Shown here: piece after piece, positions 2,304-60,458 of the stretch | Layout: every line of letters starts with the position of its first letter | Numbering within the stretch: the stretch's first letter is position 1 | Assembly: GCF_045037415.1 (NCBI RefSeq) | Contig: NZ_CP173438.1 | DNA length: 64,000 nucleotides | Source of the DNA: Escherichia coli | GTDB lineage: Bacteria > Pseudomonadota > Gammaproteobacteria > Enterobacterales > Enterobacteriaceae | Direction: 5' to 3' (one strand) | The notes under the pieces: model-generated | What the model saw: only the letters and a program-made list of their open reading frames with translations | Database searches by the model: none | What the model was told of the DNA's origin: nothing | Made by a program: the position numbers and the translations under genes

Positions 2304-4622
2304 ATGAAAATTAGCGACGGAAACTGGTTGATTCAACCTGGCCTCAATTTGATTCACCCGCTTCAGGTGTTCGAGGTTGAACAGCAGGGTAATGAAATGG
2401 TGGTCTATGCTGCCCCTCGTGATGTGCGTGAACGTACCTGGCAGCTTGATACGCCTTTATTTACGCTGCGCTTTTTCTCCCCACAGGAAGGTATTGTCGG
2501 TGTACGGATTGAGCATTTTCAGGGGGCGCTGAATAACGGTCCTCATTACCCGCTCAATATTTTGCAGGACGTGAAGGTCACTATCGAAAACACAGAACGT
2601 TACGCTGAGTTTAAAAGTGGCAACTTAAGTGCGCGTGTCAGCAAAGGTGAGTTCTGGTCACTGGATTTTCTGCGCAACGGCGAACGTATTACCGGTAGTC
2701 AGGTGAAAAATAATGGCTACGTGCAGGACACGAATAATCAACGAAATTATATGTTTGAACGGCTGGATCTTGGCGTTGGCGAAACAGTTTACGGCCTGGG
2801 AGAGCGCTTTACTGCCCTGGTGCGCAATGGTCAGACGGTAGAAACCTGGAACCGGGACGGCGGCACAAGTACTGAACAGGCGTATAAAAATATCCCGTTT
2901 TATGTGACTAACCGTGGTTATGGGGTACTGGTCAATCATCCCCAATGTGTCTCTTTTGAAGTGGGATCGGAGAAAGTCTCCAAAGTACAGTTCAGCGTTG
3001 AGAGTGAATATCTCGAATACTTTGTTATCGACGGCCCGACGCCTAAAGCGGTACTTGATCGTTATACCCGTTTTACTGGCCGTCCGGCGCTGCCGCCCGC
3101 GTGGTCCTTCGGTCTGTGGCTAACCACTTCATTTACCACCAACTACGACGAAGCGACGGTAAACAGCTTTATCGATGGTATGGCGGAACGCAATCTGCCG
3201 CTGCATGTTTTCCACTTTGACTGTTTCTGGATGAAAGCCTTCCAGTGGTGCGATTTTGAGTGGGATCCGCTGACTTTTCCGGACCCGGAAGGGATGATCC
3301 GCCGCCTGAAAGCGAAAGGGCTGAAAATCTGCGTCTGGATTAACCCCTATATTGGGCAAAAATCCCCCGTCTTTAAAGAGTTACAAGAGAAAGGTTATTT
3401 ACTCAAACGCCCGGACGGTTCGCTGTGGCAGTGGGATAAATGGCAGCCAGGTCTGGCGATTTATGACTTTACCAATCCGGATGCCTGCAAATGGTACGCC
3501 GACAAACTGAAAGGTCTGGTCGCGATGGGCGTTGATTGCTTTAAGACCGACTTTGGCGAACGTATTCCAACCGATGTTCAATGGTTTGATGGTTCCGATC
3601 CGCAGAAAATGCATAACCATTATGCATACATCTACAACGAACTGGTGTGGAACGTGCTCAAGGACACCGTTGGTGAGGAAGAAGCCGTCTTGTTTGCCCG
3701 CTCGGCCTCCGTTGGTGCGCAGAAATTTCCGGTACACTGGGGTGGCGACTGTTACGCTAACTACGAATCAATGGCGGAAAGCCTGCGCGGTGGTTTGTCT
3801 ATTGGCCTTTCAGGTTTTGGCTTCTGGAGCCACGATATCGGCGGCTTTGAAAATACCGCTCCGGCGCACGTTTACAAACGCTGGTGCGCGTTTGGTTTGC
3901 TCTCCAGCCATAGCCGTTTACATGGCAGCAAATCTTATCGTGTGCCGTGGGCCTACGATGATGAGTCCTGTGATGTGGTGCGCTTCTTCACGCAACTGAA
4001 ATGCCGCATGATGCCGTATCTGTATCGTGAAGCTGCACGTGCAAACGCCCGGGGTACGCCGATGATGCGGGCCATGATGATGGAGTTCCCGGACGATCCG
4101 GCTTGTGATTACCTTGACCGTCAATACATGTTAGGCGACAACGTGATGGTTGCGCCTGTGTTCACTGAAGCGGGCGATGTGCAGTTCTACCTGCCGGAAG
4201 GTCGCTGGACACACCTGTGGCACAACGATGAACTCGACGGTAGTCGCTGGCATAAACAGCAGCACAGCTTCCTGAGTCTGCCCGTTTATGTGCGTGATAG
4301 CACCCTACTGGCGCTGGGCAACAACGATCAACGTCCCGATTACGCGTGGCACGAAGGTACGGCATTCCACCTCTTTAATCTGCAAGACGGGCATGAAGCC
4401 GTCTGTGAAGTGCCCACTGCTGACGGTTCGGTGATCTTTACTTTAAAAGCAGCACGTACTGGCAACACGATTACTGTGACTGGTACGGGCGAGGCGAAGA
4501 ACTGGACACTGTGCTTGCGCAATATTGTGAAAGTAAATGGTCTGCAAGGCGGTTCGCAGGCTGAAAGTGAGCAGGGACTGGTGGTGACTCCTCAAGGGAA
4601 TGCGCTGACAATTACGTTGTAA
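2304..4622 (+). CDS. yicI: Alpha-xylosidase, glycoside hydrolase family 31
   Basis: 772-aa ORF, same length as E. coli YicI; GH31-type motifs (WIDMNE-like region, catalytic Asp context FKTDFGE); 10-bp gap after yicJ (operon). Confidence 0.9.
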
Positions 4623-4636
4623 TCTATTGAAGAATG

Positions 4637-4667
4637 CCGGATACGAATGGTTTTGTGTCGTATCCGG
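4637..4667 (+). terminator. Stem-loop downstream of yicI (10-bp stem CCGGATACGA/TCGTATCCGG, 11-nt loop), no T-tract
   Basis: Perfect inverted repeat read directly from the sequence 15 nt after the yicI stop; lacks a U-run so it may be a stability or REP-like element rather than an intrinsic terminator. Confidence 0.3.
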
Positions 4668-4916
4668 TAAATAATCTCACATCTGGTAATAAATATTTCT
4701 TCCATCGTATTTGCGAGCATGATCACGATTATTCATCACGAAAATGTGATCTGTGCTGAAAAATATCCCTTAACCGCCTTGCTTTGTTTTATCACTGTCC
4801 GGATTACGGACAGATTTTAGTATTGTTGTGAAATTATTCTGCTTTATATTTACCCTCAGAGATGGCAACTGAAGCTCTTCCATATGGGGCTTCTTAATCT
4901 GTGATAAGGGTAAAAA

Positions 4917-6470
4917 ATGCAAATGATTACCTCGCGACAAAACAGATTATTACGATTCCTTTTACCTCGAAGGGAATATACGACTATTGTTACGATTGCC
5001 GGCTATTTAAATGTTTCGGAAAAAACCATTCAACGTGATTTACGTTTACTTGAGCAATGGCTGGGACAATGGAGAATAAATGTTGAGAAGCGTGCTGGCG
5101 CGGGTGTGATGTTAAGCGCGGAGAATATTGCTGATTTGCTGCATCTTGATCATTTGTTGGTGGCAGAATGTGAAGAGATTGATGGTGTAATGAATAATGC
5201 CAGGCGCGTTAAAATAGCGTCGCAGTTATTAAGTGAAACACCGAATGAAACGTCGATCAGTAAATTGTCAGAACGCTATTTTATCAGCGGAGCCTCTATT
5301 GTTAATGACCTGAGAGTAATTGAGTCCTGGCTTGCGCCGTTGGGGTTATCGTTGATCCGCAGCCCAAGTGGTACGCATATTGAAGGTAGTGAAGGGCAAG
5401 TCCGACAGGCAATGGCATTACTGATTAACGGCATTATTAACCATAATGAGCCGCAAGGTGTCGTGTATTCACGTCTGGATCCCGGAAGCTATAAAGCATT
5501 AGTCCATTATTTTGGAGAGGAAGAAGTGTTATTTGTCCAGTCATTGTTACTGGATATGGAAAATGAATTAAGTTGGTCTTTGGGAGAACCTTATTACGTT
5601 AACATTTTTACTCATATCCTTATTATGATGTATCGCAACACGCACGGGAATGCGTTATCAAGAGAAGAAGATCAAACCAGGCAATATGATGAAAATATCT
5701 TTAATGTTGCCAGTCAGATGATTCATAAGATAGAACAACGAATTGCACATACATTGCCCGATGATGAAGTCTGGTTTATTTATCAATATATCATTTCATC
5801 AGGTGTGGCGATTGATGGACAAAAAGATGTTAGCATTATTTCACATATGCAGGCCAGCAATGAAGCGCGTCTGATTACCTGGCGTTTAATTACGGTATTC
5901 AGTGACATCGTGGACTGCGATTTTAGTGAAGACAGCGCATTATATGATGGCTTATTGGTGCATATTAAACCGCTGATTAACCGACTAAATTATCGTATTC
6001 ATATCCGTAATCCATTGCTGGAAGATATTAAAGCAGAATTAGCGGATGTCTGGCGGTTGACGCAATATGTGGTGAATCAGGTATTTAAAACCTGGGGTGA
6101 GAATGCGGTGAGCGAGGATGAAGTGGATTACCTGACCGTTCATTTTCAGGCTGCGATGGAACGGCAAATTGCCCGTAAACGCGTATTACTGGTCTGTTCA
6201 ACCGGAATCGGAACTTCGCATCTACTGAAAAGCCGTATTCTGCGAGCATTTCCTGAATGGACGATTGTTGATGTTATTTCAGCAGCGAATTTATCACAGG
6301 TTTTGCCTGACAATATCGAACTGATTATTTCGACCATTAATTTGCCTACAGTCACTATGCCGGTCGCTTATGTTACCGCTTTTTTTAATGATGCCGATAT
6401 TAAGCGGGTCACTGAAATGGTGATTACGGAAAAATTACATCATGCGACGTCTCGGGTCGTTGAAATTTAA
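4917..6470 (+). CDS. PRD-containing, PTS-regulated transcriptional activator (MtlR/LicR-like): N-terminal HTH, PRD region, C-terminal EIIB(Gat)-like domain
   Basis: 517-aa ORF; N-terminal HTH-like segment (TIVTIAGYLNVSEKTIQRDLRLLEQWL); C-terminal RKRVLLVCSTGIGTSHLLKSRI resembles the phosphorylatable Cys loop of galactitol-type EIIB domains found in PRD activators; AT-rich gene heading a PTS operon. Confidence 0.6.
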   Translation: MQMITSRQNRLLRFLLPRREYTTIVTIAGYLNVSEKTIQRDLRLLEQWLGQWRINVEKRAGAGVMLSAENIADLLHLDHLLVAECEEIDGVMNNARRVKIASQLLSETPNETSISKLSERYFISGASIVNDLRVIESWLAPLGLSLIRSPSGTHIEGSEGQVRQAMALLINGIINHNEPQGVVYSRLDPGSYKALVHYFGEEEVLFVQSLLLDMENELSWSLGEPYYVNIFTHILIMMYRNTHGNALSREEDQTRQYDENIFNVASQMIHKIEQRIAHTLPDDEVWFIYQYIISSGVAIDGQKDVSIISHMQASNEARLITWRLITVFSDIVDCDFSEDSALYDGLLVHIKPLINRLNYRIHIRNPLLEDIKAELADVWRLTQYVVNQVFKTWGENAVSEDEVDYLTVHFQAAMERQIARKRVLLVCSTGIGTSHLLKSRILRAFPEWTIVDVISAANLSQVLPDNIELIISTINLPTVTMPVAYVTAFFNDADIKRVTEMVITEKLHHATSRVVEI

Positions 6471-6496
6471 TGTCAGAATTTTATGAGGTATGACGA

Positions 6497-6967
6497 ATGG
6501 ACATAACAAAAATCCTGAATACGAATCGCGTTATTTTAGATATGCAAGCGACGAATAAAGCGGAGGCGATTGAAGAATTAACTAATCTTCTCAAAAAAGA
6601 TGGTGCGATCGATTGTCGGGAAACCTTTATTAAAGATGTCTGGCAGCGCGAAGCGGAAGGCTCGACTGGTTTTGAAAATCATATTGCGATCCCGCATGGT
6701 AAATCTTCAGCTGTGATTAATACTACGCTGGCAATTGGCCGTACCCGCCAGGATATTCCCTGGGAAACGCTGGATGGCAGTAGCGTGCGCTGTATTATTT
6801 TATTTGCGGTACGTCTTGAAGATCAAAATACCACCCATATCCGTTTACTTTCCCAGGTCGCGGGCGCGCTGGCGGATGATGACATCATAGAACAATTGTT
6901 AGTTGAGACGAGTCCGCAAAAAATCATTGATCTCTTTAGTCAGTATGCACAATCCGATGTCTGCTAA
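6497..6967 (+). CDS. PTS EIIA component, fructose/mannitol (type 2) family
   Basis: 156-aa ORF with the EIIA-2 His motif context (NHIAIPHGKS); RBS-spaced 26 nt after the regulator gene. Confidence 0.7.
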   Translation: MDITKILNTNRVILDMQATNKAEAIEELTNLLKKDGAIDCRETFIKDVWQREAEGSTGFENHIAIPHGKSSAVINTTLAIGRTRQDIPWETLDGSSVRCIILFAVRLEDQNTTHIRLLSQVAGALADDDIIEQLLVETSPQKIIDLFSQYAQSDVC

Positions 6968-6984
6968 ATAACAGGGAGTATGTC

Positions 6985-7299
6985 ATGAATATTGTCTGTG
7001 TTGCCGCCTGTACGGCGGGTATTGCTCATACCTATATTGCTCGTGAAAAGTTAATCAAAGGAGCAAAAGCTCTGGGCCATACCATTAAAGTTGAAACCCA
7101 GGGAACCATTGGTACAGAAAATGAATTACAGGCGGCAGATATCTCTGCTGCTGACGTCGTGATTCTTGCTGTAGATGTGAAAATAAAAGGAGAAGAACGC
7201 TTCACCAATAAACGTATTGTGCGAGTAAAGACAGAGATCGTCATTAAGTCGCCCGTTCAATTTCTTGAAAAGGTCGAAAAATCACTGGGAAACAAATGA
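6985..7299 (+). CDS. PTS EIIB component, fructose-type
   Basis: 104-aa ORF; N-terminal active-site Cys loop (NIVCVAACTAGIAHT) typical of fructose-family EIIB (FrwB-like). Confidence 0.7.
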   Translation: MNIVCVAACTAGIAHTYIAREKLIKGAKALGHTIKVETQGTIGTENELQAADISAADVVILAVDVKIKGEERFTNKRIVRVKTEIVIKSPVQFLEKVEKSLGNK

Positions 7300-7323
7300 T
7301 CCTTATACTGGAGGGATCTTAAT

Positions 7324-8415
7324 ATGAAAGAAAATAAAATTACGGTTTCACAGGAAATTAAAAAACATTTATTAACCGGCATCTCGTGGATGATACCCCT
7401 TATTGTGGCCGCCGGGATATGTATTGCGTTGGGGCAAGTTCTTGGCGGTACAGATGTTGGTGAAAAAACAGGAACAATCCCGTGGATGCTTAATCAGATT
7501 GGCGGCTGGGGAATGGGGCTGATTGTGCCGCTGATTAGCGCGGCAATTGCCTATTCTATTGCCGATCGTCCCGGATTTGCCCCGGGCCTGATTGTCGGCT
7601 TTCTCTGTGGGCAAATCCATACCGGATTTATTGGCGGTATGTTGGGTGGTTTCCTGGTGGGCTACACCATTTTGCTACTTAAACGCTATATCCGCCTGCC
7701 GCAGTCGATGCAAGGACTCATGCCAATCATGGTGTTGCCGGTATTAAGCACCATTATCGGTGGGCTGTTAATGATGACGCTGATTGGTAAACCCATCGCC
7801 TGGTTACAAGAAGCACTGATTCATTTGCTCGAGTCGATGCAGGGCGGATCGCGCTTCCTGATGGGGGCCATACTTGGCGCGATGGCAACCTTCGATTTCG
7901 GTGGTCCGGTCAACAAAACCATGTCGCTGTTTTCCGATGGCTTGCTGGTCAGTGGCGTCTACGGACCAGAAGCCGTGAAATTTGTCGGCTCAATCATCCC
8001 TCCGTTTGGCATCACACTTTCGTTCTTACTGACACGCCATAAATACACCCGTGCGGAGCGCGAGGCGCTGAAAGCCGCGTTTCCGATGGGGATCTGCATG
8101 ATTACTGAAGGAGTCATTCCGATCGCCGCGCGTGACCTACTGCGAGTAGTGGGATCTTGTGTGGTGGCATCGGCGGTCGCGGGCGGCTTAATCATGGTGT
8201 GGGGCGTGGAGAGTCCGGTTCCGCATGGCGGCATGTTTGTTGTGCCTCTGTTCACCCATCCTCTGCTGTTTTGCCTGGCGCTGGGTATAGGCACGGTGAT
8301 TTGTGGCGTGATGCTTTCACTCTGGAAGAAACCGGTAACGGAACGCGACGAAGAGTTTGACGAACTGAGCGATCAAAAGCTGAAAGATGAAGAGATCACT
8401 TTCACCCTCGAATAA
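7324..8415 (+). CDS. PTS EIIC permease, fructose-like family
   Basis: 363-aa polytopic membrane ORF, similar in size and hydropathy pattern to FrwC-type IIC; follows the IIA and IIB genes. Confidence 0.7.
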   Translation: MKENKITVSQEIKKHLLTGISWMIPLIVAAGICIALGQVLGGTDVGEKTGTIPWMLNQIGGWGMGLIVPLISAAIAYSIADRPGFAPGLIVGFLCGQIHTGFIGGMLGGFLVGYTILLLKRYIRLPQSMQGLMPIMVLPVLSTIIGGLLMMTLIGKPIAWLQEALIHLLESMQGGSRFLMGAILGAMATFDFGGPVNKTMSLFSDGLLVSGVYGPEAVKFVGSIIPPFGITLSFLLTRHKYTRAEREALKAAFPMGICMITEGVIPIAARDLLRVVGSCVVASAVAGGLIMVWGVESPVPHGGMFVVPLFTHPLLFCLALGIGTVICGVMLSLWKKPVTERDEEFDELSDQKLKDEEITFTLE

Positions 8416-8426
8416 CCGGAGGCCCT

Positions 8427-9278
8427 ATGTTTGCCGATATGAAAAGTATGGTGATGAAAGCCTGGCATGAACATTACGCCTTGCTGGCGATCAACTGTAT
8501 GAATCTGGAAAGTGCTCACGCAGCTATCCGCGTGGCGGAGAAGAATCGCGCTCCGATCATTCTCAATCTCTATCAGGGGCATCTGGCGCATTTTCCTGCA
8601 CCCGTCGCGGCGGCAGTGGTTAAAACGCTCGCGGAATCTGCCTCAGTACCGGTCGCTCTGGCGCTTGATCATGGCAAAAATCCGGACTGTATTCGTCAGG
8701 CGTTTCGTGCTGGTTTCAGCGGATTAATGATTGATGCTTCTGCTTTTCCCCTGGAGGAAAACGTGCGCCAGACCAGGGCGGTGGTGGAACTCGCCGCCAG
8801 CGCGCAGCTCTGCGTGGAAGGCGAACTGGGCCATCTGGCAGATGCGCCGCGTTACGACCAGGCCGCCAATGCAGACCTGATGACGCAACCCACTGATGTG
8901 GAACCGTTTATCGCGCAGACAGGCATTGATCTACTGGCCGTCTCGGTAGGCACGGCGCACGGCATGTACGCGCCTGGCGTTGTACCTGCTATTGATTTTC
9001 AGCGTCTGGCGGAGATTTTCCACTGCTCGAGCGTGCCTCTGGCATTACATGGCGGTAGCGGTACGCCGTTCGATCAGCTCCAGCTCTGTACGACTCTGGG
9101 GGTAGCAAAAATCAACGTGGGGGCGGCCATTTTTGAACGGGGGAAATCCGCGCTCCTGCATACCCTCTGTCACGATATATCCATTGAACTGGTGGACGCG
9201 CTGAAAGCTATGGAACTGGCCTTCGAAGAAGCGATTACACCGTATTTACAGGCGAGCGGCGCTATCGGCAAAGCCTGA
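8427..9278 (+). CDS. Class II ketose-bisphosphate aldolase family protein (paralogue 1, divergent N-terminus)
   Basis: 283-aa ORF retaining class II aldolase metal/catalytic motifs (LALDHG, VEGELG, GTAHG, LHGGSG) but with an N-terminal region diverged from the canonical substrate-binding motif. Confidence 0.6.
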   Translation: MFADMKSMVMKAWHEHYALLAINCMNLESAHAAIRVAEKNRAPIILNLYQGHLAHFPAPVAAAVVKTLAESASVPVALALDHGKNPDCIRQAFRAGFSGLMIDASAFPLEENVRQTRAVVELAASAQLCVEGELGHLADAPRYDQAANADLMTQPTDVEPFIAQTGIDLLAVSVGTAHGMYAPGVVPAIDFQRLAEIFHCSSVPLALHGGSGTPFDQLQLCTTLGVAKINVGAAIFERGKSALLHTLCHDISIELVDALKAMELAFEEAITPYLQASGAIGKA

Positions 9279-9358
9279 TTCATTTTCTGTCATGGCCTTT
9301 ATGCCAGTGCAATAACGCACCGGCAGGGCGGACTACACGCTGAAACTGGAGATTTAAC

Positions 9359-25061: not shown

Positions 25062-25312
25062 GGTTCTCTCCCTAAAAATCTGTCTGGAAGGGTAGCGATT
25101 TGTGCGCATTGTCACGATTGAGATTTTTTAAGGAGAGAATAGATTGATAATTTGTAGTTATGTGAAATTGCTATTTTCTGTAGTAAGAATGCATTTTTCT
25201 GATTTTGTGATAAGTAAAATGCATTAGAAAAAGTATGGAGTAAATAAATATGAGGACGAAACTATATGCGTAGCGCCGCTGTAATTAACAACGGCCTACG
25301 GAGATATGTCGC

Positions 25313-27085: not shown

Positions 27086-27727
27086 ATGAAACCATATCAG
27101 CGCCAGTTTATTGAATTTGCGCTTAGCAAGCAGGTGTTAAAGTTTGGCGAGTTTACGCTGAAATCCGGGCGCAAAAGCCCCTATTTCTTCAACGCCGGGC
27201 TGTTTAATACCGGGCGCGATCTGGCACTGTTAGGCCGTTTTTACGCTGAAGCATTGGTGGATTCCGGCATTGAGTTCGATCTGCTGTTTGGCCCTGCTTA
27301 CAAAGGGATCCCGATTGCCACCACTACCGCCGTGGCGCTGGCGGAGCATCATGACCTTGACCTACCGTACTGCTTTAACCGCAAAGAGGCAAAAGACCAC
27401 GGTGAAGGCGGTAATCTGGTTGGTAGCGCGTTACAAGGACGCGTAATGCTGGTAGATGATGTGATCACCGCCGGAACGGCGATTCGCGAGTCGATGGAAA
27501 TTATTCAGGCCAATGGCGCGACGCTTGCAGGCGTGTTGATTTCGCTTGATCGTCAGGAACGCGGGCGCGGCGAAATTTCGGCGATTCAGGAAGTTGAGCG
27601 TGATTACAACTGCAAGGTGATCTCTATCATCACCCTGAAAGACCTGATTGCTTACCTGGAAGAGAAGCCAGAAATGGCGGAACATCTGGCGGCGGTTAAG
27701 GCCTATCGCGAAGAGTTTGGCGTTTAA
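27086..27727 (+). CDS. pyrE: Orotate phosphoribosyltransferase
   Basis: From [36 protein letters not shown] gives 213 aa; PRPP-binding motif [13 protein letters not shown]. Confidence 0.93.
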
Positions 27728-27734
27728 CGAAACT

Positions 27735-27758
27735 CGCCGGATGAAAAGTCATCCGGCG
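27735..27758. terminator. Bidirectional stem-loop between convergent pyrE and slmA
   Basis: CGCCGGATGA / TCATCCGGCG 10-bp perfect stem with AAAG loop, read directly from the sequence. Confidence 0.45.
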
Positions 27759-27763
27759 TCATA

Positions 27764-28360
27764 TTACTGCAACTGTGCGGCAATTAGCGGCCAGCGGGCG
27801 TCAAAATCATCCGTCGGGCGGTATTTAAACTCGCTGCGGACAAATCGTGACAGCATACCTTCACAAAATGCCAGCAACTGGCTTGCCAGCAGGGTTTCAT
27901 CGGTGGTGTAACCTTCACCCTCACGCATTCTCTTTTCACGCAATACCTGACGCAACTGCGCTTCAATACGCTCGAACAGCTGGTTGATGCGCCCTTGCAG
28001 ACGATCCTGTTCGAACATTAGCGCATGACCAGTGAGGATGCGAGTCAGGCCAGGATTACGCTCACCAAAACCGAGGAGCAACAACACGATCAGACGCAGG
28101 CGCGCTGTGGTGTCTTTCTCATCTTTCAGAATCAGGTTGATACGAGTAATCAGGCTATCTTCGATAAACTCAATCAGGCTATCGAACATGCGGGTCTTAC
28201 TGGGGAAGTGGCGATACAGTGCCGCTTCGGAAACGCCGACAGAGGCGGCCAGTTTTGCCGTCGTGATACGTTGGCTTCCATCGCTGGATTCCAGCATCAG
28301 CGCCAGAGACTGAAGTATTTCCTCGCGACGGTTCCTTTTCGCAGTTTGTTTTTCTGCCAT
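27764..28360 (-). CDS. slmA: Nucleoid occlusion factor SlmA (TetR family)
   Basis: From [24 protein letters not shown] gives 198 aa, matches SlmA (Ttk). Confidence 0.9.
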
Positions 28361-31701: not shown

Positions 31702-32511
31702 ATGCCTGAATTACCCGAAGTTGAAACCAGCCGTCGCGGCATAGAACCGCATCTCGTTGGTGCAACCATTCTTCATGCGGTGGTGCGCAACGGACGCTTG
31801 CGCTGGCCGGTTTCAGAAGAGATCTACCGTTTAAGCGACCAACCAGTGCTTAGCGTGCAGCGCCGGGCTAAATATCTGCTGCTGGAGCTGCCTGAGGGCT
31901 GGATTATCATTCATTTGGGGATGTCTGGCAGCCTGCGCATCCTTCCAGAAGAACTTCCCCCTGAAAAGCATGACCATGTGGATTTGGTGATGAGCAACGG
32001 CAAAGTGCTGCGCTACACCGATCCGCGCCGCTTTGGTGCCTGGCTATGGACCAAAGAGCTGGAAGGGCACAACGTGCTGGCCCATCTTGGACCGGAGCCG
32101 CTTAGTGACGATTTCAACGGTGAGTACCTGCATCAGAAGTGCGCGAAGAAAAAAACGGCGATTAAACCGTGGCTGATGGATAACAAGCTGGTGGTAGGCG
32201 TAGGGAATATTTATGCCAGCGAATCGCTGTTTGCGGCGGGGATCCATCCGGATCGGCTGGCGTCATCACTGTCGCTGGCGGAGTGTGAATTGTTAGCTCG
32301 GGTGATTAAAGCGGTGTTGCTGCGTTCGATTGAGCAGGGCGGTACAACGCTGAAAGATTTTCTGCAAAGTGATGGTAAACCGGGCTATTTCGCTCAGGAA
32401 TTGCAGGTTTACGGGCGAAAAGGTGAGCCGTGTCGGGTGTGCGGTACGCCGATTGTGGCGACTAAACATGCGCAGCGGGCAACGTTTTATTGTCGGCAGT
32501 GCCAGAAGTAA
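31702..32511 (+). CDS. mutM: Formamidopyrimidine-DNA glycosylase
   Basis: 269-aa ORF starting [13 protein letters not shown] (catalytic N-terminal Pro after Met) with C-terminal zinc finger CRVCGTPI...CRQCQ. Confidence 0.95.
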
Positions 32512-32521
32512 TTGATGCGCG

Positions 32522-32544
32522 CCGGATGGCATACCATCCGGCAT
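32522..32544. terminator. Stem-loop between convergent mutM and coaD
   Basis: GCCGGATGG / CCATCCGGC 9-bp stem with CATAC loop; no clear T-tract. Confidence 0.35.
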
Positions 32545-32549
32545 AAACT

Positions 32550-34314
<1,765 letters not shown>

Positions 34315-34666
34315 AGTAAATAGCTGACTTATGGATGTGCTGGGGATTCTATGTATTTAGCTGTGGCTTTACCATTACTTTTCCCGTTTTTGACTTAAAT
34401 AGCAATTTACCCGCCAATTCTTGCTGAACATCTATACTTTTTTTGTATTTTTATGCGATTCATTGATTTCTGCAGTACGTGCAGGAAGGAATCGCAGAGC
34501 AACAGTAAAAAGAATATGGTTGCTAATGATTTTATTTGATTGATTTCTTTATTGAAAATCAACAATGTGCTTAAAAATCATTCGGGTCGGATTGCCGCGA
34601 AAGAAGTGATACACTAGCGCGTCAATATCAGTGCGGTATCAGTATTCAGGTAGCTGTTGAGCCTGG

Positions 34667-34678
34667 GGCGGTAGCGTG
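34667..34678 (+). promoter_or_regulatory. ops element (GGCGGTAGCGTG) within the JUMPstart region upstream of the waaQ operon; RfaH recruitment site
   Basis: Exact 12-nt match GGCGGTAGCGTG about 50 nt upstream of the waaQ start, in the 413-bp divergent waaA-waaQ intergenic region. Confidence 0.65.
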
Positions 34679-59063: not shown

Positions 59064-59885
59064 ATGTCGTGTGAAGAACTGGAAATTGTCTGGAACAATA
59101 TTAAAGCTGAAGCCAGAACGCTGGCGGACTGTGAGCCAATGCTGGCCAGTTTTTACCACGCGACGCTACTCAAGCACGAAAACCTTGGCAGTGCACTGAG
59201 CTACATGCTGGCGAACAAGCTGTCATCGCCCATTATGCCGGCTATTGCTATCCGTGAAGTGGTGGAAGAAGCCTACGCCGCCGACCCGGAAATGATCGCC
59301 TCTGCGGCCTGTGATATTCAGGCGGTGCGTACCCGTGACCCGGCGGTGGATAAATACTCAACCCCGTTGCTATACCTGAAGGGTTTTCATGCTTTGCAGG
59401 CGTATCGCATCGGTCACTGGTTGTGGAATCAGGGGCGTCGCGCACTGGCTATTTTTCTGCAAAACCAGGTTTCTGTGACGTTCCAGGTTGATATTCACCC
59501 GGCAGCAAAAATTGGTCGCGGTATCATGCTCGACCACGCGACAGGCATCGTCGTTGGTGAAACGGCGGTGATTGAAAACGACGTATCGATTCTGCAATCT
59601 GTGACGCTTGGCGGTACGGGTAAATCTGGTGGCGACCGTCACCCGAAAATTCGTGAAGGTGTGATGATTGGCGCGGGCGCGAAAATTCTCGGCAATATTG
59701 AAGTTGGGCGCGGCGCGAAGATTGGCGCAGGTTCCGTGGTGCTGCAACCGGTGCCGCCGCACACTACTGCCGCTGGCGTTCCGGCACGCATTGTCGGCAA
59801 GCCGGATAGCGATAAACCGTCAATGGATATGGATCAGCATTTCAACGGCATTAACCATACGTTTGAGTATGGTGATGGGATCTGA
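59064..59885 (+). CDS. cysE: Serine O-acetyltransferase
   Basis: 273-aa ORF MSCEELEIVWNNIKAEARTLADCEPMLASFYHATLLKHENLGSAL with hexapeptide repeats. Confidence 0.95.
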   Translation: MSCEELEIVWNNIKAEARTLADCEPMLASFYHATLLKHENLGSALSYMLANKLSSPIMPAIAIREVVEEAYAADPEMIASAACDIQAVRTRDPAVDKYSTPLLYLKGFHALQAYRIGHWLWNQGRRALAIFLQNQVSVTFQVDIHPAAKIGRGIMLDHATGIVVGETAVIENDVSILQSVTLGGTGKSGGDRHPKIREGVMIGAGAKILGNIEVGRGAKIGAGSVVLQPVPPHTTAAGVPARIVGKPDSDKPSMDMDQHFNGINHTFEYGDGI

Positions 59886-59898
59886 TGTCCTGTGATCG

Positions 59899-59933
59899 TG
59901 CCGGATGCGATGTAATCATCTATCCGGCCTACA
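59899..59933. repeat. REP-like palindromic unit between convergent cysE and trmL
   Basis: TGCCGGATGCGATGTAATCATCTATCCGGCCTACA: GCCGGATG...ATCCGGCCTAC imperfect palindrome resembling REP consensus, read from the sequence. Confidence 0.4.
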
Positions 59934-59937
59934 GTAA

Positions 59938-60411
59938 CTAATCTCTCAATACCGCTCCCGGATACCCCAACTGCCGCCAGGCTTCATACACCACGACCGA
60001 CACCGCATTGGACAGGTTCATGCTGCGGCTGTCCGGCACCATTGGAATACGAATTTTTTGTTCAGCGGGCAGGGCATCAAGAATGCTCGCTGGCAGGCCG
60101 CGTGTTTCCGGGCCGAACATCAGATAATCGCCATCCTGATAGCTTACGGCGCTGTGAGCAGGCGTACCTTTCGTGGTGAGGGCAAACAGACGCTGGGGAT
60201 TTTCTGCTTCGAGAAACGCGCGATAGTCATGATGACGCGTAACGGCGGTAAACTCGTGATAGTCCAGCCCCGCGCGGCGCAGGCGCTTATCGTCCCAGGC
60301 AAATCCCATCGGTTCGATGATATGCAGACGAAAGCCGGTATTAGCGCAAAGACGGATGATGTTGCCAGTATTTGGCGGAATTTCTGGTTCGTAAAGTACG
60401 ATGTTTAGCAT
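59938..60411 (-). CDS. trmL: tRNA (Cm34/cmnm5Um34) 2'-O-methyltransferase
   Basis: 157-aa [42 protein letters not shown] family. Confidence 0.93.
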
Positions 60412-60458
60412 ACTGCCCCCTTAGTGCGGGGGCAGGATAGCAGATATTCGTCTAACCC

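Follow-up and report, generated by a model that had tools for sequence, protein, structure and literature searches.

A probable single Y-type REP and three GCCGGAT-type 3′-end hairpins among the palindromes of a 64-kb segment of the Escherichia coli chromosome

The window, by which we mean the whole stretch of 64 kb (64,000 nucleotides) of DNA analysed here, is a segment of the Escherichia coli chromosome that extends from selC/yicJ to lldP, in reverse orientation relative to positions 3.78-3.835 Mb of K-12 MG1655. It is 100% identical to strain SK1144 over the stretches tested. Relative to SK1144, the window has one extra base between 11.9 kb and 27 kb, which shifts annotation-derived coordinates beyond this point by +1, and gene ends were therefore re-derived from open reading frames. 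Four palindromes with related stems lie just past gene ends in this segment, namely after yicI (4637-4667), between pyrE and slmA (27735-27758), between mutM and coaD (32521-32542) and between cysE and trmL (59900-59932). An earlier sequence-only reading had all four sites right, and its intervals need correction only from 32522-32544 to 32521-32542 and from 59899-59933 to 59900-59932. The pattern CCGGAT-N(2-30)-ATCCGG has exactly four matches in the 64 kb (4637-4667, 27737-27756, 32522-32541 and 59901-59927), compared to a chance expectation of 0.11 ± 0.31, and none of 100 dinucleotide-preserving shuffles reached four. Predicted folding of all four palindromes, on both strands, gives -15.5 to -21.3 kcal/mol with z-scores of -3.3 to -5.1. 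Match count and fold z-scores together show that these palindromes are not a product of chance.

Three of the four are perfect, short hairpins. The first, CCGGATACGA-atggttttgtg-TCGTATCCGG, has a stem of 10 bp and an 11-nt loop, and its stem starts 14 nt from the yicI stop codon (4620-4622). The second, CGCCGGATGA-aaag-TCATCCGGCG, also has a 10-bp stem, located 7 nt from the pyrE stop codon (27725-27727) and 5 nt from that of slmA (27764-27766). The third, GCCGGATGG-cata-CCATCCGGC, has a 9-bp stem that lies 9 nt from the mutM stop codon (32509-32511) and 7 nt from the coaD stop codon (32550-32552). The fourth element has the sequence GCCGGATGCGATGTAATCATCTATCCGGCCTAC and is extragenic, with both stop codons outside it: that of cysE (59883-59885) lies 14 nt before the element and that of trmL (59938-59940) 5 nt after it. 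On the MG1655 chromosome, the corresponding sites are 3832178-3832204 (yicI), 3815096-3815119 (pyrE/slmA), 3810312-3810333 (mutM/coaD) and 3781694-3781726 (cysE/trmL). The sequence-only reading had placed these elements at convergent gene ends, which holds for pyrE/slmA, mutM/coaD and cysE/trmL but not for yicI, which is followed in the window by a co-directional frzR-like gene; a convergent arrangement of yicI and yicH is found only in strains that lack the sugar island located at this point. Hairpins are a general feature of such junctions here, as a scan for perfect hairpins with stems of at least 8 bp found one at every one of the six convergent junctions whose genes do not overlap in the window, and three of these six carry the GCCGGAT type or a REP.

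The RefSeq record of MG1655 is devoid of REP annotation, to the point that even RIP1 at 5565-5669 is missing, so that an absent label at these sites is uninformative, and Rfam holds no REP family; for these reasons we built our own REP model. An Rfam scan of the window gave no match at the four sites and recovered only tRNA-Sec and JUMPstart. Seeded alignment over 305 kb of K-12 yielded 23 bona fide REPs of the Y, Z1 and Z2 types, and the covariance model was built from their alignment, with the canonical structure of lower stem, bulge and upper stem. Scores within K-12 were bimodal, with REPs (the 23 training sequences) at 32.6-57.7 bits and everything else at 23 bits or below. With filters off, the sole significant match in the window was 59900-59932 (37.8 bits, E = 1e-6), and the next best score was 15.2 bits. 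The short hairpins scored 10.6-10.9 bits (4637-4667), 9.9 bits with an E value of 2.9 (27735-27758) and 15.2 bits with an E value of 0.17 (32521-32542), in alignments confined to the lower stem plus, at mutM/coaD, part of the tail. The profile scan thus bears out the REP-like unit that had been proposed between cysE and trmL, and finds no REP match in the three stem-loops that had been described as related to it. A further candidate at 25275-25299 (11.7 bits) was rejected as a chance similarity on reading its sequence. No BIME or REPIN, that is no alternation of inverted REPs with a short linker, is present in the window, as the single model match has no neighbouring match.

The element between cysE and trmL carries the hallmarks of a REP. 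The + strand CTAC at 59929-59932 reads as GTAG on the - strand, where the whole element is GTAG-GCCGGAT-A-GATG-atta-CATC-GC-ATCCGGC, so that the REP, read in the trmL sense, has its GTAG in front. In the predicted fold of this strand, a lower stem of 7 bp is followed by a 1x2 internal loop and then by an upper stem of 4 bp, which is closed by a loop of 4 nt. With the Y type of E. coli REP, which belongs to the group 2 REPtron and is a substrate of TnpA-REP/RAYT, it shares the GTAG tetranucleotide, the GCCGGAT/ATCCGGC lower stem, the bulge, the 4-bp upper stem, the extragenic position and the range of profile scores. It differs from a canonical Y REP in the sequence of the upper stem (GATG/CATC instead of GGCG/CGCC), in the loop and in a bulge of 1x2 in place of the canonical 2x2, and from a BIME or REPIN pair in being a single unit. 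On the covariance model, the tetranucleotide and the bulge, we annotate 59900-59932 on the - strand as a single, decayed Y-type REP.

A series of alleles at the same position clarifies the history of this REP. K-12 is identical to the window, whereas strain PG20180057 carries a canonical Y REP, GCCGGATGCGGCGTGAACGCCTTATCCGGCCTAC. Six substitutions and one deletion distinguish the window allele from the canonical one. In the upper stem, both members of two base pairs are replaced (G:C by A:T and C:G by T:A), which turns GGCG/CGCC into GATG/CATC; the loop is also altered and one bulge base is lost. These double-sided compensatory changes indicate that the hairpin was preserved while its sequence drifted. 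In ERL06-2497 the window variant ends in the tail GGCATAC, with GTAG changed to GTAT, and in GPEC1446 the tail is further degraded. In BH100 the loop of the canonical allele is occupied by IS1397, flanked by a duplicated GAA; IS1397 is an IS3-family element that inserts specifically into REPs (PMC1525189). Between the same two genes, Salmonella enterica and two further enterobacterial lineages hold GTAG REPs in the opposite orientation, and the junction evidently acquires REPs repeatedly. By profile score, tetranucleotide, fold and comparison of alleles, the element of the window is shown to be a genuine REP, a diverged allele of the canonical REP found in other E. coli lineages. Whether it would still be acted upon by TnpA-REP (YafM) is uncertain, given its 1x2 bulge and, in one sampled allele, a GTAT tail.

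The three short hairpins do not share these hallmarks. Neither GTAG nor CTAC flanks any of them on either strand, the nearest approach being TTAT at mutM/coaD, and none has a bulge, their stems being perfect over 10, 10 and 9 bp. Both GTAG and the bulge are essential for binding and cleavage by TnpA-REP, and perfect stems are inactive (PMC8266576). Lacking the tail and bulge that define a TnpA-REP substrate, the three are not REPs. At the level of sequence they share with E. coli REPs only the lower stem, (T)GCCGGAT(G)...(C)ATCCGGC, and fail in the tetranucleotide, the bulge and the profile score; the claim that they are related stem-loops therefore stands for a non-random lower stem and no further. 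A slight exception is the ATAA that follows the mutM/coaD hairpin and resembles a degraded REP tail (GGCATAa, compared to GGCATAC or GGCCTAC). That the stem is common to all three is not due to chance. In the perfect hairpin stems that the K-12 sample of 305 kb contains outside REPs, no 6-mer is commoner than CCGGAT and GCCGGA (5 of 94), and hairpins of the GCCGGAT type occur about once per 50 kb in this sample. Further examples in K-12 lie at the gene 3′ ends of ushA/ybaK and fetB/cnoX, and after yodC. As a side observation, short hairpins of this type in E. coli are found mostly between convergent genes.

Conservation of the pyrE/slmA and mutM/coaD hairpins, both of which are identical in K-12 and the window, was investigated in 80 Enterobacterales species, with loci fetched using CoaBC as the anchor. 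The E. coli-trained REP model returned only seven significant matches in these 80 other species, because REP families differ by genus. What occupies the two sites was instead assigned by a crude, rule-based GTAG-plus-palindrome classifier, which reported irrelevant hairpins in those spacers that measure about 1.2 kb. At neither site does any stem position vary among E. coli, E. whittamii and E. albertii (0/18 at each), compared to 9/18 non-stem positions at pyrE/slmA (Fisher p = 0.001) and 10/21 at mutM/coaD (Fisher p = 0.0006). Such invariance, without covariation, could fit selection on an RNA structure or on a DNA sequence, for example a protein-binding site, equally well; alternatively, it could reflect a short divergence time together with gene conversion.

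The two junctions differ in how the hairpin is distributed among species. At mutM/coaD, it is present in all 5424 of the 5424 matching E. coli genomes, and the Escherichia spacer of 38-39 nt contains it. Stop codons that abut or overlap, with no hairpin, are found in 33 of about 70 other Enterobacterales species, which indicates that the Escherichia element is an insertion. Citrobacter and Pseudocitrobacter have similar REP-like GCCGGAT hairpins here (GCCGGATG), and true GTAG REPs occupy the junction in Pseudescherichia vulneris, Klebsiella oxytoca, Pluralibacter and 'Escherichia sp. ESNIH1'. At pyrE/slmA, a GC-rich hairpin was found in every species examined. It takes the form of classic bidirectional terminators, with A-tract, hairpin and T-tract, in Buttiauxella, Cedecea, Atlantibacter, Rahnella and others; REP-free lineages have terminators of the form AAAAGGGCC...GGCCCTTTT. 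Full REP pairs (GTAG/CTAC) are present in the Citrobacter freundii complex, Kluyvera georgiana and Enterobacter cloacae, and Escherichia species carry CGCCGGATG...CATCCGGCG without the pattern of A-tract and T-tract. The short hairpins of Enterobacter, Leclercia and Kluyvera use the stem of their own REP family, GCCCGGT, and those of Escherichia and Citrobacter use GCCGGAT.

A split at the pyrE/slmA hairpin occurs in about 382 E. coli genomes. In the one split genome that was read, IPCEC31, the 36 nt between the pyrE and slmA stop codons are replaced by 1302 nt, which encode a reverse transcriptase; its YCDD box is the one described for RT-Eco5/Ec107. Herzer is reported to have mapped Ec107 to pyrE/ttk in 1992. 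The hairpin between pyrE and slmA would appear to be the very palindrome that is replaced by this retron, the window carrying the retron-free allele and IPCEC31 the replaced one. In the passage of PMC6868368 that cites Herzer (1992), retron-Ec107 (Retron-Eco5) is stated to replace a palindromic intergenic sequence of 34 bp, and its site is given there only as 'an intergenic region'.

Regarding function, we infer that the short hairpins most likely act as 3′-end RNA stem-loops. Under a simple consensus rule for terminators, namely a GC-rich hairpin followed by a T-tract, only the hairpin at 27735-27758 qualifies, in the slmA sense; in five of the six strand combinations of the short hairpins no T-tract follows, and the yicI and mutM/coaD hairpins, like the REP between cysE and trmL, have none on either strand. 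Dar and Sorek (2018, PMC6061677) showed that, in Rho-dependent transcripts of E. coli, stable stem-loops without a U-tract determine where the steady-state 3′ end lies and shield it against PNPase and RNase II. Such stem-loops are stable and GC-rich, lie just past the open reading frame and lack a U- or A-tract. This description is matched, in sequence and predicted fold, by the hairpins at mutM/coaD and yicI, by the pyrE-sense side of the hairpin at pyrE/slmA, and by the REP. No transcript 3′ end is listed for any of the four sites in the supplements to PMC7815308 and PMC12207403.

In the mechanism that we propose, transcription would place each hairpin at the end of one or both converging mRNAs, where it would form a stable RNA stem-loop. 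This stem-loop would set or protect the mRNA 3′ end against 3′-5′ exonucleases, following Rho-dependent or weak intrinsic termination. Proximity to the stop codon might add a second effect. REPs located less than 16 nt from a stop codon lower translation, according to a passage in PMC12306157 that cites Liang (2015); as the hairpins lie within 15 nt of a stop codon, they too could damp translation termination of the upstream gene.

Where the short hairpins came from is a separate question, and a REP origin is plausible, but unproven. They may be REP fossils, in which a full REP or an inverted pair of REPs lost its apex and GTAG and the remaining lower stem was co-opted as a 3′-end hairpin, a reading that we put forward tentatively. 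The hairpin-free state of mutM/coaD in other species favours it, as do the true REPs and REP pairs that relatives hold at both junctions, and the correspondence between the stem of the short hairpins and the lower stem of each genus's own REP family. So too do the residual tails, GGCATAa at mutM/coaD and TTATCCGGCCcAC at a yicI hairpin in a Citrobacter-like contig, although this resemblance spans only four to five bases. Decay of a REP can be observed at one orthologous site, between cysE and trmL, and CCGGAT is the top 6-mer of the non-REP hairpin stems in K-12. However, no sampled E. coli lineage has a full REP at mutM/coaD, where the hairpin is fixed, and the sampled split genome at pyrE/slmA holds a retron and not a REP. 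Furthermore, the perfect GCCGGATG/CATCCGGC stem is unreachable from one REP by deletion alone, and requires in addition at least one T-to-C change, or else a deletion across two inverted REPs. The REPs of other genera may also represent independent insertions at a permissive site, and are no proof of descent.

It is unlikely that the short hairpins are instead independent bidirectional intrinsic terminators, which converged on a GC-rich stem and whose likeness to REPs is historically meaningless. The presence of a GC-rich hairpin at pyrE/slmA in every species, many of them with textbook bidirectional terminators, is what such a history would predict, and the hairpin of the window at this junction satisfies the terminator rule in the slmA sense. 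Against it stand the T-tracts missing from the remaining hairpin-strand combinations, an identical stem 7-8-mer in separate hairpins, which is far beyond chance, and the fact that stems follow the REP family of their lineage.

The hairpin after yicI requires separate consideration, since it lies at the start of an island. The sequence-only reading had placed it at the proximal junction of a sugar island, and this is correct: the island (4668-11903, + strand) begins at the distal foot of the hairpin, and megablast homology between the window and K-12 ends at 4645, within it. The island encodes a regulator of the BglG/PRD family, PTS IIA, IIB and IIC components, two aldolases, a ROK kinase and a lyxose/mannose isomerase, and has its own terminator-like hairpin at 11870-11895. 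It corresponds to the frz operon of ExPEC, which Rouquet is said to have described in 2009, in position (between yicH and yicI), size (about 7.2 kb) and gene content, and stands outside the palindrome family. In PMC12928451, the frz operon is listed as genomic region 27, between yicH and yicI, with 7227 bp. Among 5426 genomes, 1601 carry the island and 3814 have an empty site. Accessory DNA varies at three of the four palindromes of the window, as frz at yicI, retron-Ec107 at pyrE/slmA and IS1397 at cysE/trmL.

The hairpin itself is found with and without the island. In six of six sampled island-free strains (K-12 and five others), the sequence is GCCGGGTACG-tctgagt-CGTACCCGGC, followed by GAGATTGAT(G/T)T, and in four of four island-bearing strains it is GCCGGATACGA-atggttttgtg-TCGT(A/G)TCCGG, followed by island DNA. 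Apart from the loop, a single compensatory pair distinguishes the two versions, and their shared position in both kinds of strain indicates that the hairpin is orthologous in the two states. The comparison with K-12 that had been proposed, in which an identical intergenic sequence was to speak against a relation to the insertion, gave a mixed outcome, as the K-12 hairpin is orthologous, but not identical. A contig resembling Citrobacter braakii has the same order of yicJ, yicI and frz, with FrzR at about 74% identity, and carries a REP-like hairpin, TGCCGGATGCGTCTTATCCGGCCCAC, after yicI. The whole spacer between yicI and frzR, hairpin included, aligns between this contig and the window, which indicates that the arrangement of yicJ, yicI and frz is old.

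That the hairpin is a scar or attachment-type mark left by insertion of the island, as the sequence-only reading had suggested, is very unlikely: homology to island-free genomes does break inside it, and the A:T or G:C stem pair and the loop type covary perfectly with the island in ten strains, a pattern into which N1454 fits with its island-type upstream flank and empty-site hairpin, but an orthologous hairpin marks the empty site and the spacer aligns with the Citrobacter-like contig, there is neither integrase nor tRNA at the island, no repeat of 7 nt or more is common to its two junctions, its GC content of 48.7% is unremarkable, and neither a simple insertion nor a simple deletion interconverts the alleles, since 27 nt of K-12 sequence are replaced. 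On the evidence of these alignments, the yicI hairpin is best described as an ancestral, pre-existing 3′ hairpin that serves as a landmark for the start of the island, and not as an insertion scar.

Taken together, we consider it probable that the element between cysE and trmL is a true, single REP of the Y type, that the other three are 3′-end stem-loops and not REPs, and that the yicI hairpin is ancestral. All of these elements belong to known categories, and no new system is involved: REPs, 3′ stem-loops without U-tracts, the frz operon, the target palindrome of retron-Ec107 and the targeting of REPs by IS1397 are already in the literature. The analysis is accordingly of little value for discovery, and its use lies in annotation, where the label REP fits only one of the four elements that had been called REP-like, and where the yicI hairpin is not to be taken as an integration scar.

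The site between cysE and trmL offers a natural series of canonical, compensated-stem, GTAG-mutated and IS1397-interrupted forms at a single position, and could serve to study how a REP decays while its hairpin is retained. Beyond this site, the GCCGGAT(G)...(C)ATCCGGC hairpins may possibly be domesticated REP remnants, left by REPs that came to lie between stop codons and shed tail and apex, selected as 3′-end hairpins and also used as preferred points for the replacement or insertion of accessory DNA, an interpretation that we advance with some reserve. If it were true, the same pattern would be expected in each enterobacterial genus, built from that genus's own REP stem.

At the pyrE|slmA spacer, the site of a perfect short stem-loop at 27735-27758 with a GCCGGAT-type stem, the sequence 27728-27763 is split in approximately 382 E. 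coli genomes. The content of the insertion was read in one of these, strain IPCEC31, in which 1302 nt stand in place of the entire spacer, hairpin included (locus L114, 1200-2501). The replacement DNA, apparently retron-Ec107 (Retron-Eco5), codes for a reverse transcriptase that has a YCDD box. Separately, in the comparison across Enterobacterales species, an additional gene of approximately 1.2 kb was seen between slmA and pyrE in about 15 of the compared species (loci L030, L035, L039, L040, L042, L045, L049 and L050, among others); its product in Klebsiella pneumoniae is a protein of 339 amino acids with a twin-arginine-type signal peptide.

The cysE|trmL site can also be occupied by a mobile element. 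At the position equivalent to window 59886-59937, strain BH100 carries a copy of IS1397, annotated as frameshifted, which interrupts a canonical Y REP at its loop and is accompanied by duplication of GAA (locus L113, 2537-4024). Coverage of this site is incomplete in up to 137 genomes.

The frz operon island (4668-11903) has relatives in other Enterobacteriaceae (L107-L109), with 73-80% identity in the regulator and in differing contexts: a transposase adjoins the operon in a Salmonella contig, the gut operon adjoins it in a metagenome contig, and in the Citrobacter-like contig L109 it is placed downstream of yicI, the position that it has in E. coli. At 4795-4813, in the leader of the gene for the frz regulator, CTGTCCGGATTACGGACAG is a hairpin resembling a terminator, and ATTTTAGTAT comes after it. 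Both this hairpin and a nearby TGTGATCTG motif are kept in L109, and the hairpin may be a regulatory attenuator or a binding site. A JUMPstart element was detected at 34640-34678 (Rfam RF01707, 55.2 bits), where its position upstream of rfaQ matches expectation for the LPS core operon.

Compared with K-12, the window is missing dinD between yicG and yicC (25062-25312) and htrL between rfaD and kbl (48862-49075). It is also not exactly the SK1144 record (NZ_AP018784.2), because it has one additional base between 11.9 kb and 27 kb.

Further differences from K-12 lie in intergenic repeats. The lldD-trmL spacer measures 47 nt in the window (60412-60458) and 197 nt in K-12 (L003, 2019-2215), where it holds two GC-rich, Box C-like CCCTCTCCC…GGGAGAGGG repeats; the window has neither. 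Between gltS and recG, the bidirectional hairpin AAGCGGCGGT-cttctc-ACCGCCGCTT is uninterrupted in the window (16617-16642), whereas in K-12 it is broken by approximately 135 bp with two REPs in it, one Z1-like and degenerate, the other Y-like and inverted (L005, 43293-43460). The gltS|recG terminator hairpin is polymorphic for the presence or absence of a REP pair inside it.
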